NCBI GenBank assembly: GCA_905250115.1
Contig: CAJNOI010000116.1
Location: 158,664-177,027 of the forward strand
Direction: 5' to 3'
From: Adineta steineri
Lineage: Eukaryota
DNA: 18,364 bases
Below, in pieces: positions 10,498 through 13,602 of the stretch. The position numbers were made by a program, and so were the translations under genes. The notes below the pieces were generated by a model that did no database searches, was not told where the DNA came from, and worked only from the letters and a program-made list of their open reading frames with translations. Every line of letters begins with the position of its first letter. Position 1 is the stretch's first letter.

Positions 10498-12267
10498 ATG
10501 TCATCGAAAGATTCATCATCTCAAATCAGTCCCATTCATCGTATTCATCCATTTTATTATATTCATGTATTAGATCAAAATACAAGTGTAACACGTTTAG
10601 AAATTGGTCCACAAAAATTTTTCAGACAAGATAATGAAACAATTCGTACTGGACCTGAGAAAATGATTACTATACCACCAGGACATTATTGTATTATTGA
10701 AAATCCGGTTGTAAAAAATGAAATGGGTCAAGTACAATTCGATGAAAATGGACAAGTTAAATTATTACATGGTAATTTAGATATTAGATTGAATAAAGAT
10801 TACAAAGATCCGTTTCCATTATATCCCGGAGAGGTTTTAAAACAAGTATAATAAATTTTTTTTCAATAAAATTGATTTTCTATTTTCATTAATTTAGCCT
10901 GTAACTTTATTAAAATATGTTGCAGCTAATTCAGCATTAAGACTAAAAGCTATTTTAGATTTTGATGAACAAAGAAAAACAGGAGATCAATGGTTATTCG
11001 AAGGACCAGGTAAATAATTGCATACTTAACTCAATACAATTGCATCGTATTCAATACCTTTGTTTACATAGGCACCTATATACCACGTAAAGAAGTATCA
11101 GTTGAAGAGCAAATCAATGCTACTATCATTGGTCCTAACCAAGCAATAAAATTAAGTGCCAAGAGAGAAATTACTGATCGTATGGGTCAACATCGTGTAG
11201 CCGGTGAAAATTGGTTAGTAAAAACACCGGGTGCTTATTTACCATTAGCTTATGAAACAGTTATAAATATTGAAAATGCACATGTATTGACAAATAAAAA
11301 TGCTTTACATTTACGTGCATTAAAAACATTTACAGATGATTTTGATCAAACACGAAATAATGGTGATGAATGGCTTGTAACAATAGAACAAACTGAAACA
11401 CATATTTTAAATGTTTATGAAGAACTTGTAACAATTATTGATATAACTGTACTTAATTCAAGACAATATTGTACTATTTTAGATCCAGTTTCAGGTAACG
11501 ATTCTCGATATATATATATGACAGAGAGATTAGTTTCTTTTTTAGCTGATGGTAAAAATCAATTAGGAAAGAAAAAATTAATTGTTGGTGAAAAAACATT
11601 TTTTCTTCAACCTTATGAACGATTAGAAAAAGGAATTCAAAATATAAATATTTTGGATGAAGATGAAGGTCTCATATTGAAATGTACAGAATCATTTGAA
11701 GACGAAATAGATAAAGTAATACGTATGGCAGGTAAGATTGAATAAATGTCTTTGTTTATAATATGAATATTTAAAGGTGATCGTTGGTTATTGAGAGGAC
11801 CAAGAGAATATGTACCACCTACTCAAGTTGAAATATTAATGAAAAGAAAGGCAATACCCTTAGGTTTGTTCATTGATATATTTTTGTTCTGGTATATCAT
11901 ATATTTTTTTTTGCTAGACGAGAATGAAGGTATCTATGTTCGTAATATTAAAAATGGTCGCGTTCGAACGGTTATTGGTCAAACTTATATATTAACAGAA
12001 AATGAAGAACTGTGGGAAAAAGAATTACCATCACGAATTGAACAATTACTACAAAAAGATTCGTTAGTTGAAAAACATATCAGAACAAAAGATATTGATA
12101 CTAAAACAGGAAAGCGTATTAAATGGAAATTAGTTACATATCATATTCCACAGAATGAAGCCGTTCAAGTGTATGATTATAAAGTCAAACAATCTAGAAT
12201 TATTTTTGGACCTGATTTAATTATGTTAGAACCTGATGAACATTTTACACATATTAATTCATCGGGG
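10498..12267 (+). CDS. MVP: Major vault protein (MVP), N-terminal repeat-domain region only (~519 aa). Exons 10498..10845, 10898..11009, 11072..11731, 11777..11863, 11918..~12267; 3' end unresolved.
   Basis: MVP-like stretches include:
- [48 protein letters not shown]
- [29 protein letters not shown]|[28 protein letters not shown]
- [30 protein letters not shown]|[55 protein letters not shown]

These are essentially collinear with vertebrate MVP R1-R9.

Introns are 52, 62, 45 and 54 nt, all GT-AG. The joins were found by frame restoration (for example cca g|GTAAAT ... catag|GC gives EGPGTYIP).

After ...HINSSG the reading frame continues into a non-MVP hydrophobic 47-aa tail to a stop at 12406-12408. 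The only nearby donor, G|GTCCAT, is non-consensus. Confidence 0.8.
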
Positions 12268-12445
12268 TCCATCGTTTACTCGCTATTTTTACTTGGATAT
12301 TTGTCTCTAGTATTTTTCTGTAAAAAATTTACGCACAACAAAAAGATTTTCTTTTCTTCTATCTTTTTATTAGTATTGTACTTTTGCTTTCGTCGTTATC
12401 TGCAATAAAATTTAGTCATTAATTAAGATGCGAATTTACGAAGAT

Positions 12446-12522
12446 GAGTGGGTGCAGATGTGGGTGGGTGCGGATATAAGTGGGTGCGAATGTGGATGGG
12501 TGCAGATATGGGTGGATCTGGC
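12446..12522 (+). repeat. G-rich minisatellite, about 5 degenerate GTGGGTGC(A/G)NAT units, in the spacer between the convergent MVP and M6PR-like 3' ends.
   Basis: The sequence is gaGTGGGTGCAGATGTGGGTGGGTGCGGATATAAGTGGGTGCGAATGTGGATGGGTGCAGATATGGGTGGATCTGG. It is followed by a C-rich gacacccacacgg. Confidence 0.7.
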
Positions 12523-12620
12523 TGTGAACGTTCCTTCTCTCAGTTGACACCCACACGGAAAATGAATTTATTTATTAAAAAAAGAAATATTGTATTCAAG
12601 AATTTTTTTAAATGAATGTA

Positions 12621-12626
12621 TTTATT
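12621..12626 (-). other. AATAAA polyadenylation signal (minus strand), about 60 nt downstream of the M6PR-like stop codon.
   Basis: The plus strand tttatt corresponds to minus-strand cgAATAAAtac. Confidence 0.4.
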
Positions 12627-12682
12627 CGAAATGAAGCAAATGTTAAAAAAATGTATGCGCTAAAGTATGATGAAGGTTCTAT

Positions 12683-13602
12683 CTATGGGATAGCATTGTA
12701 GTCACCTTTCTTGTTAGTTACTTTATGAAATACAAATAATATTCCTGCCGATGAATATCTTGGTAATGAAGTCCAGAAAGTACGATGCGGAAGAATTTCA
12801 ATACCAGTTGCTTGGAGCTTAAATTTATTATAACTCATGAAAGCAATCAAGTAGACAAATATAAGAACCAGCAATATAATAATAAATATTGTTCCTGCAC
12901 TTGGTCCATCGTTGGATTTTGGATGATGACCATCTAAATAGAATATTGTTAGATTATATAATAATATTGAAACTATCTGTAACCTTTACAGCCATCCCAA
13001 CATACACATTTAGATGATAATGTCATAGTGTATAGAGCTTTTAAAGCATCATATCCCTGTACTTCTAATTTGTCAGGCTCTTTTGATGTCAAACAACGTA
13101 GCTTAACTTCTGATGTTCTTTCTCCTGATGTGTAAACAAGAGTTGGTGTATCATCACCTGCAGTAGTCTTCCATTTTATACTATTTTGAGTTCCTAATGA
13201 ATAAGTTAGTTTTTCATCTGTAGCAAATGCTAAACGAAATTATAAAATAATTTATTTAAAAATACAATAATAATAGTTCTTACCTTGGCATACAGCAACA
13301 TCTTTACATTCACCTTGAGTAAATGAATGACATGGATTGTAAGAGTATACTACAAAATATGATATATTTGTTTTTTTTCATCATATAAATATATATTGAT
13401 CACAATTACCATGACCATCACTTGTACTAGGAGTTACGTCTTTCCACATAGGTGTACCATCAGTACGGCCAACACTAGTTAAATCAATTATACCTTTTGT
13501 ATTTAAGTTATAAATACAAGGGTCTTCCGCATTTAATATATTAAATTGATATAAAAACAGAAAAAATAAAAACACAACATTCTTTCGTGCAGTCATTCTC
13601 AT
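12683..13602 (-). CDS. M6PR: Cation-dependent mannose-6-phosphate receptor-like type-I membrane protein (MRH domain), ~253 aa. Exons 13410..13602, 13284..13349, 12984..13229, 12683..12933.
   Basis: The N-terminus has a signal peptide (MRMTARKNVVFLFFLFLYQFNILNA). An MRH-domain Cys framework follows (DPCIYNL..SDGH|VYSYNPCHSFTQGECKDVAVCQ|AFATDEKLTYSL..KLRCLTSKEP..LSSKCVCWDGCK).

There is a single TM helix (GTIFIIILLVLIFVYLIAF). The juxtamembrane tail YNKFKLQATGIEILPHRTFWTSL matches the CD-MPR [23 protein letters not shown] block. The C-terminus has a YxxPhi motif (DYNAI).

All introns are phase 1 and GT-AG: G|GTAATT..tttgtag, G|GTAAGA..cgtttag, G|GTTACA..ctatttag. Confidence 0.75.

Follow-up and report, generated by a model that had tools for sequence, protein, structure and literature searches.

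How can a gene for the major vault protein (MVP) come to an end directly after its repeat array, where exons for the shoulder, cap-helix and cap-ring would be expected to follow? This is the question raised by a stretch of 18,364 nucleotides (nt) from the bdelloid Adineta steineri (GenBank assembly GCA_905250115.1, contig CAJNOI010000116.1, positions 158,664 to 177,027 of the forward strand), referred to here as the window, whose own numbering is used throughout. A reading of the letters alone (the sequence-only reading) had noticed that the MVP gene appears to end after repeat domain R9 and had offered four explanations: an MVP paralogue that is truncated and has acquired a novel membrane-like tail, a very long intron with nested genes, a rearrangement at a G-rich minisatellite, or a mis-assembly. 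The analysis described here favours the first of these, since the architecture is common to Adineta and Rotaria loci and the tail is conserved. In all likelihood the gene is a genuine, selectively maintained MVP paralogue with repeats R1-R9, which lost its cap once and acquired a tail of ~46 amino acids (aa), its product probably being a membrane-anchored stave; we call this truncated paralogue MVP-T.

In our spliced model, MVP-T lies on the plus strand and consists of six exons (10498-12408) encoding 548 aa, with GT/AG at all junctions; this revises the earlier count of five exons, just as the ~519 aa previously thought to be collinear with MVP shrink to a homologous part of ~502 aa. The predicted protein matches all four Vault repeat Pfam families (Vault, 5e-63; Vault_2, 1e-32; Vault_3, 3e-20; Vault_4, 2e-18), as canonical rat and human MVP do (PDB: 4V60, 4HL8, 7PKR), and its residues 13-501 can be aligned over their whole length with residues 7-501 of the solved rat and human proteins (E ~1e-172). 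Beyond residue 501 there is no alignment to these structures, nor does MVP-T have any Pfam match to the SPFH/stomatin-like MVP_shoulder domain (PF11978); unlike canonical MVP, it has no shoulder, cap-helix or cap-ring, and in their place carries a 46-aa tail with two hydrophobic segments. When two full-length bdelloid MVPs were compared with the window by tblastn (E <= 10, word size 2 for the shoulder and cap search), the matches spanned 10492-12273 and homology stopped at 12270-12273, past R9. For the last 360 aa of bdelloid MVPs, which cover shoulder, cap-helix and cap-ring, there was no credible match on either strand of the 18.4-kb window, the few extra matches having E > 1 and scores of ~20 bits. 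Past 12270 the MVP-T frame continues for 46 codons to a TAA stop at 12406-12408, as the sequence-only reading had it. With Pfam, tblastn and the alignment to solved MVPs all in agreement, a genuine truncation of the window gene after R9, without shoulder or cap exons, is supported.

MVPs of this shortened form are not confined to the window. The top protein database matches include bdelloid MVPs of ~525-552 aa without a shoulder domain, the closest being A. steineri P0001 (93% identity), while A. steineri P0244 (CAF1085265.1) is, by visual comparison, the window protein residue for residue until a differently predicted last splice. We therefore compared loci from two assemblies of A. steineri (L001, L002) and three of Rotaria socialis (L004-L006), together with A. 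ricciae (L003), A. vaga (L007), R. sp. Silwood1 (L013), R. sp. Silwood2 (L012) and R. sordida (L014). In each fetched locus the last exon continues beyond R9 with 46-51 aa of tail, in an alignment free of indels, and the same tail is seen in protein models of R. magnacalcarata. The annotated orthologues in Rotaria and A. ricciae terminate at the same stop, and in six orthologues, compared by eye, an AATAAA hexamer overlaps the stop codon or lies within a few bases of it (A. vaga reads CGA TAA AAT).

These comparisons bear directly on the three other explanations. Judged from the window alone, which stops ~6 kb past the tail, the gene could still encode a full-length MVP, with its shoulder and cap exons outside the window and beyond a very long intron that harbours the minus-strand genes. 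We consider this extremely improbable: bdelloid MVP introns measure 45-208 nt, the 6-10 kb of downstream sequence fetched at the orthologous loci of seven species is free of shoulder and cap sequence, as is the ~3 kb available in R. sordida, whose contig is short, tblastn with full-length MVPs likewise giving no credible match there, and the genes downstream of the truncated MVP differ between Adineta and Rotaria. In addition, the tail open reading frame (ORF), the position of the stop and the AATAAA are kept across genera, which would not be expected of intron sequence. That the truncation instead arose as an artefact of assembly, or through recent rearrangement of the DNA at the G-rich minisatellite, is barely conceivable. 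The minisatellite does lie 36 bp past the stop, and it is variable, the window being one 32-nt unit longer than the other A. steineri contig (L001). Against this, 11 loci from eight species, each assembled independently, have one and the same gene end, the minisatellite is found neither in A. ricciae and A. vaga nor in any Rotaria despite the same truncation, and the window and L001 are collinear from 9451 to 17649, straight across the gene end, at ~92% nucleotide identity. Read from this distribution, the minisatellite is a later, A. steineri-specific feature of the 3' spacer; it is followed by a complementary CACCCACAC stretch at ~12545-12560. Mis-assembly, long intron and minisatellite rearrangement can be regarded as effectively excluded as causes of the truncation.

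If the truncation is real, is the gene still at work? Across the loci the tail follows a single pattern, in which SGS and a hydrophobic stretch of ~17 aa are followed by [KRQ][KR]xxx[NS]K, x-FF, a second hydrophobic stretch of ~13 aa and RR[YF], with eight invariant positions (G2, S7, L14, K27, F30, F31, R44 and R45). Nei-Gojobori estimates of the ratio of non-synonymous to synonymous substitution rates (dN/dS) for the R8-R9 part of the last exon are 0.05-0.28 in eight of nine pairs, the ninth (window against A. vaga) giving 0.41, and those for the tail are 0.16-0.6, typically ~0.45, at a synonymous divergence between genera that is ~1 or saturated. By these codon comparisons we show here that both the repeats and the tail of MVP-T appear to be under purifying selection. 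The cross-genus similarity of the tail, scored with BLOSUM, exceeds that of all 10,000 composition-preserving shuffles (z = 6.7-9.1); when residues are shuffled only within the hydrophobic and charged blocks, z is still 4.2-7.3, with at most 1 in 10,000 shuffles reaching the observed score. The conservation is therefore positional and not a mere by-product of T-rich DNA. It also ends with the gene: the first 132 nt of the tail show 55-68% ungapped nucleotide identity across genera, against 19-38% for the 132 nt past the stop, even within Rotaria. Upstream, 57 full-length MVPs define 196 positions with a conservation of 95% or more; the truncated MVPs keep 85-92% of these, and they share seven clade-specific replacements (N30S, T40K/I, A92G, E200N/S/Q, G318x, M361L/V and H464Q).

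This evidence makes it very improbable that MVP-T is a decaying partial duplicate, or pseudogene, whose tail is a chance reading into AT-rich non-coding DNA. Such a reading draws on the ease with which T-rich sequence encodes Phe, Leu and Ile, on a 1-nt insertion ahead of the tail in A. vaga, and on a somewhat faster rate in the truncated clade, whose distance to outgroups is 0.55 compared with 0.42-0.46 for full-length MVPs. A young duplicate of just this kind does exist in an unrelated AT-rich eukaryote (metagenome contig L008), where a partial copy (P0044, 521 aa) likewise breaks off at the R9/shoulder boundary and continues into a hydrophobic tail. Unlike MVP-T, however, the L008 copy is 99% identical in aa sequence to a nearby full-length gene and has an unconserved tail, as befits a young partial tandem duplicate, and the L008 MVP is sister to the bdelloid MVPs in our tree, its truncation being independent of the bdelloid event. 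In bdelloids, by contrast, the ORF is intact at all loci read except that of A. vaga, and neither an accumulation of disabling mutations nor a dN/dS near 1 is seen; the tail has remained free of indels and stops at a synonymous divergence of ~1 or more between genera, its residues are conserved by position well above shuffles, the 3' flank falls out of register immediately past the stop, near-invariant MVP positions are retained, and the A. vaga orthologue (or homoeologue) is strongly expressed and induced. The L008 contig (Joint Genome Institute metagenome 3300071516; 23.6% G+C) has intronless genes, with MVP copies at 8001-9566 and 15040-17566 and a short tandem repeat after the cut.

The expression data come from a published study of A. 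vaga, in which Moris et al. found five MVP genes to be over-expressed, one of them in the core response to rehydration and radiation (PMC10809525). One MVP in their Table S3, FUN_013870-T1, has PF01505, PF17794, PF17795 and PF17796 only, with no shoulder, and adjoins FUN_013871, a PF00685 sulfotransferase (PMC10809525). Because a PF00685 gene also directly adjoins the truncated MVP at the A. vaga locus L007, these vault-only domains and this neighbour lead us to take FUN_013870 to be the A. vaga orthologue or homoeologue of MVP-T. With a mean count of 1501, FUN_013870 shows a log2 fold change of 3.94 (~15-fold induction; false discovery rate 4e-75) 2.5 h after desiccation and X-rays, compared with -0.35 at 0 h and 0.95 at 8 h; its missing cap gets no comment in that paper (PMC10809525). 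FUN_013871 belongs to the core radiation-plus-desiccation response as well, so that the two neighbours are co-induced; the sulfotransferase at L007 (6881-7750) has cyanobacterial best matches and looks like a horizontal transfer. A full-text literature search returned no other paper naming both MVP and bdelloids, and none on a cap-less MVP with a transmembrane tail.

How old is the loss of the cap? In a neighbour-joining tree (500 N-terminal columns, 300 bootstraps), the truncated MVP genes are monophyletic (99.7% bootstrap) and form a clade (100%) with both full-length Didymodactylos carnosus MVPs, while the remaining full-length Adineta and Rotaria MVPs make up a separate clade (100%). The Didymodactylos proteins (P0006, 864 aa; P0016, 863 aa) are the closest full-length relatives of MVP-T, with 71% identity and five shared introns: those of the truncated genes, after aa 116, 156.33, 297.33, 359.33 and 388.33, are identical in position and phase in P0006, the first of them, at the end of exon 1, being common to all orthologues and the full-length Didymodactylos MVP, whereas the full-length A. 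steineri paralogue P0018 has one of the five positions. Unlike MVP-T, the Didymodactylos genes go on with VPKKPNQIRSLALLLGPDF..., shoulder and cap-helix, and have four further introns. Since the truncated clade is monophyletic and its intron positions are common with Didymodactylos, an ancestral bdelloid MVP lineage, still full-length in Didymodactylos, probably lost everything past R9 a single time, ahead of the divergence of Adineta from Rotaria. The truncation point does not fall on a Didymodactylos intron boundary, the next intron there lying 40 codons downstream. A search with the Didymodactylos C-terminal half for an orphan shoulder-plus-cap gene, as expected from gene fission, gave partial models and no obvious Adineta orphan, in a non-exhaustive search that omitted proteins already seen. 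In D. carnosus the two full-length MVP genes are convergent and lie ~4 kb apart (L010, 6289-9643 and 13716-17643).

The source of the tail itself is harder to trace. By eye, its start (I-x-S-L-x-L-L-G) resembles the first shoulder strand (IRSLALLLGPDF) once VPKKPNQ is deleted. A derivation from that strand found no support in a profile-profile comparison (hhalign probability 0.2%). The tail start also resembles, again by eye, a frameshifted reading of the region of the first shoulder strand, at saturated synonymous sites. A profile built from eight tails found no scoring match among 5.8 billion proteins, a search in which the short, hydrophobic profile missed known orthologues too.

What, then, might the tail do? 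Its 46 aa comprise a first hydrophobic segment (H1, ~17 aa), a basic loop of 8 aa, a second hydrophobic segment (H2, ~15 aa) and RRYLQ. H1 and H2 (residues ~504-520 and 529-543 of 548) are by far the most hydrophobic stretches of MVP-T and both fall within ~50 residues of the C-terminus; their Kyte-Doolittle means over 15 aa are 2.2 and 2.55, the latter the maximum of the whole protein, compared with a peak of 1.15 in residues 1-480. Hydropathy gives no N-terminal signal and no other transmembrane segment in MVP-T, the N-terminus being an ordinary MVP R1. AlphaFold, run with 63 sequences, predicts tail helices at 504-523 and 531-547 (predicted local distance difference test score, pLDDT, ~50-60) in a model with a mean pLDDT of 60, in which R3-R5 is the only confident part; with four sequences the pLDDT was 31. 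In lacking an N-terminal signal, and in combining a large N-terminal domain with terminal hydrophobic segments and basic flanks, MVP-T resembles, by hydropathy, tail-anchored and C-terminal hairpin proteins, which include clients of the GET/TRC40 type as well as mitochondrial and peroxisomal anchors with short transmembrane segments and basic flanks. It differs from tail-anchored proteins in that its tail has no homology to a known anchor by the profile search above, which also missed the tail's own orthologues, and in that it has two hydrophobic segments; in the read-through model, two segments joined by a basic 8-aa loop depart from a strict single-segment tail anchor, and only one segment remains if a 54-nt element within the tail is spliced out.

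Alternatively, the tail could be a self-association module that takes the place of the cap-helix barrel, closing or nucleating a soluble vault-like shell with no membrane anchor at all. C-terminal helix-helix packing does drive the assembly of canonical vaults (PMC3595041), and the MVP-T tail is helical by prediction. Kyte-Doolittle means of 2.2-2.5 flanked by K and R are, however, membrane-like rather than typical of a coiled-coil or amphipathic helix, and we judge this alternative improbable.

A more specific doubt concerns the exact C-terminus in A. steineri. MVP-T could be truncated and functional and nonetheless have a small intron spliced out of its tail, giving an alternative ending: removal of 54 nt (12320-12373) would leave a single hydrophobic segment of ~24 aa ahead of RRYLQ, as in classical single-pass tail anchors, and removal of 64 nt (12310-12373) would give an unrelated ending of 13 aa. 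The element has a 5' GTAAAA, a 3' polypyrimidine tract and TTATTAG, and a length typical of bdelloid introns; within A. steineri the 54 nt vary at five sites, three of them non-synonymous. Public A. steineri models do splice it, P0001 and P0242 removing the in-frame 54-nt intron and P0241 and P0244 the frameshifting 64-nt one, and this mutual contradiction suggests ab initio prediction without transcript evidence. The GT/AG pair is missing in Rotaria and A. vaga, while in each case the segment has a length divisible by three, lacks stops and encodes three of the eight invariant positions (K27, F30 and F31). Because the splice sites are unconserved and the encoded residues include invariant positions, reading through 12320-12373 is the favoured prediction for the A. 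steineri C-terminus, and a spliced tail, although a serious alternative, is unlikely. Elsewhere, public models P0003, P0004, P0007, P0008, P0010 and P0035 deviate solely through predicted splices or fusions to the next gene, and the genomic read-through frame is intact at the loci checked against deviating models (L007, L013 and L014). Fusions of the truncated MVP with a downstream gene are seen in P0004, P0245, P0008, P0010 and P0035; the partner is an unannotated gene of 411 aa in A. ricciae (L003, 12018-13253) and a cysteine-rich, secreted-looking protein in Rotaria.

Several observations weigh against a maintained paralogue with a membrane-anchoring tail. At ~0.45, the typical dN/dS of the tail clearly exceeds that of the repeats, and what is constrained in the tail is therefore mainly the pattern of hydrophobicity and charge. 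An extra G (CTCAAT-G-ATATCC, L007 ~9765-9775) just before the tail causes a frameshift in the chromosome-level A. vaga assembly (CP075492.1); with the tail out of frame, the public A. vaga model I4U23_015588 has an unrelated C-terminal peptide. This G is the only lesion among the loci read, the tail beyond it being otherwise intact and conserved, and it could reflect either a fault of the assembly or a genuine, very recent lesion. The public A. steineri models, as described above, contradict each other on the splicing of the tail. Both the membrane insertion of the tail and its topology are predicted from hydropathy, AlphaFold confidence there is low (~50-60), and a short H2 (~15 aa), with both the loop and the C-terminus basic, makes no clean fit to a simple hairpin topology. 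Finally, FUN_013870 is identified by domain content and one neighbour, and could be a homoeologous copy.

Taking these points into account, we propose the following for MVP-T as a conserved, tail-bearing paralogue. Shoulder, cap-helix and cap-ring have been replaced by a tail of two predicted helices, in a gene that ends with its stop inside an AATAAA. Hydrophobic segments in the last 46 residues of a protein leave the ribosome only at termination, and proteins of this type, such as tail-anchored proteins, are inserted post-translationally. As MVP-T has no signal peptide and both of its hydrophobic segments lie in that final stretch, exposed only at termination, its tail would probably be inserted in the same way, as in a tail- or hairpin-anchored protein, and a vault-repeat stave of ~500 aa would be left on the cytosolic face of the membrane. 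The repeats could fold there without a cap, to judge by the recombinant R1-R7 fragments (3GF5, 3GNF, 3GNG), which are likewise cap-less repeat arrays and fold alone (the 3GF5 match covers residues 13-386, E 5e-133); those fragments were made in the laboratory, whereas MVP-T is encoded by a conserved natural gene and has a hydrophobic tail in addition. In canonical MVP the cap-helix dominates the lateral contacts and is required for vault self-assembly (PMC3595041). Lacking it, MVP-T alone is therefore probably unable to build a closed vault, while the strong conservation of its repeats argues that they still have a repeat-specific role. Full-length MVPs are also encoded in the same genomes (P0018-P0021), and MVP-T may serve as a membrane-bound vault-repeat scaffold that binds vault partners, or that co-assembles laterally with full-length MVP or docks it, in which case it would act during recovery from desiccation or radiation. 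A bolder version, in which this membrane-tethered, cap-less subunit forms R1-R9 arrays, alone or with full-length MVP, that stand on the plasma membrane or an organelle as docking rings or open half-vault-like barrels and are deployed within hours of rehydration or irradiation in the course of the extreme stress recovery of these animals, is speculative and, in our estimation, quite unlikely.

Table 1. Coordinates of MVP-T, its tail elements and its immediate 3' surroundings in the window.
Feature	Position	Strand	Evidence
MVP-T exon 1 (ATG at 10498; R1-R2)	10498-10845	+	GT/AG spliced model, open frame
MVP-T exon 2	10898-11009	+	Spliced model; intron positions compared with orthologues
MVP-T exon 3	11072-11494	+	Spliced model; intron positions compared with orthologues
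MVP-T exon 4	11546-11731	+	Spliced model; intron positions compared with orthologues
MVP-T exon 5	11777-11863	+	Spliced model; intron positions compared with orthologues
MVP-T exon 6, MVP-homologous part (R8-R9)	11918-12270	+	tblastn, PDB match, dN/dS
Tail hydrophobic segment H1 (IVYSLFLLGYLSLVFFC)	12271-12321	+	Hydropathy, indel-free conservation, AlphaFold helix
Tail basic loop (KKFTHNKK)	12322-12345	+	Pattern [KRQ][KR]xxx[NS]K, K invariant; protein and codon alignments
Tail hydrophobic segment H2 (IFFSSIFLLVLYFCF; FF invariant)	12346-12390	+	Hydropathy, AlphaFold helix, conservation
Invariant RR, then YLQ and stop TAA (12406-12408)	12391-12408	+	Orthologue alignments
AATAAA polyadenylation-type hexamer, overlapping the MVP-T stop codon	12404-12409	+	Orthologues compared by eye
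GT...AG intron-like element in the tail, in-frame 54 nt (64-nt frameshifting version, 12310-12373)	12320-12373	+	Public A. steineri models
G-rich minisatellite, 16/32-nt unit; 3' untranslated region or intergenic spacer	12444-12515		Tandem Repeats Finder
Convergent ATG27/mannose-6-phosphate-receptor-like gene (context only)	12683-13602	-	Pfam ATG27 2.9e-17, Man-6-P_recep 2.1e-08

The surroundings of MVP-T are summarised together with its exons in Table 1. The window is AT-rich (25-38% G+C), and its introns are ~45-62 nt long. The convergent mannose-6-phosphate-receptor-like gene that had been placed ~275 bp further on is confirmed in identity by Pfam and in distance, its stop codon starting at 12683, 275 bp past the MVP-T stop; it is thus the 3' end of that gene, and not its start, that lies there. 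The upstream limit at 13602 comes from a hand-spliced model, and the 5' end may lie beyond it, the annotated A. steineri orthologue spanning ~1.6 kb. An ATG27-like neighbour of the truncated MVP is common to A. steineri, A. ricciae and A. vaga. Elsewhere on the minus strand there are three tandem rhodopsin-type (7tm_1) G-protein-coupled receptor paralogues (784-1446, 3895-4557 and 7466-8092), with a period of ~3.3 kb and first-exon ORFs that are mutually ~90% identical by eye; the array is also present in L001, at 80-86% nucleotide identity, below the 92% of the remaining locus. A single ORF of 345 aa at 15244-16281 (minus strand), a Kelch-type beta-propeller according to the annotation of its A. 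steineri orthologue, lies where the window is richest in G+C.

The gene models discussed here are already public as "Major vault protein"; to our knowledge, the searchable literature describes neither the conserved cap loss nor the conserved hydrophobic tail nor the connection with the stress-induced A. vaga gene. The public annotations are inconsistent, with four different C-termini and fusions to downstream genes, and need transcript-based correction. Decades after their discovery, the function of vaults is still unclear. MVP-T appears to be a natural, anciently conserved MVP derivative in which the barrel-wall repeats are kept and the assembly-driving cap is swapped for an apparent membrane anchor; its A. 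vaga counterpart belongs to the core set of genes that desiccation and radiation both induce. If the open-barrel idea were true, it would be the first natural membrane-integrated vault shell, tied to a specific inducible physiological response. If the anchor itself is real, MVP-T would be a natural experiment that separates the repeat wall, with its partner binding and lateral packing, from cage closure, and it would offer an entry point to the roles of vault repeats at membranes in stress recovery.

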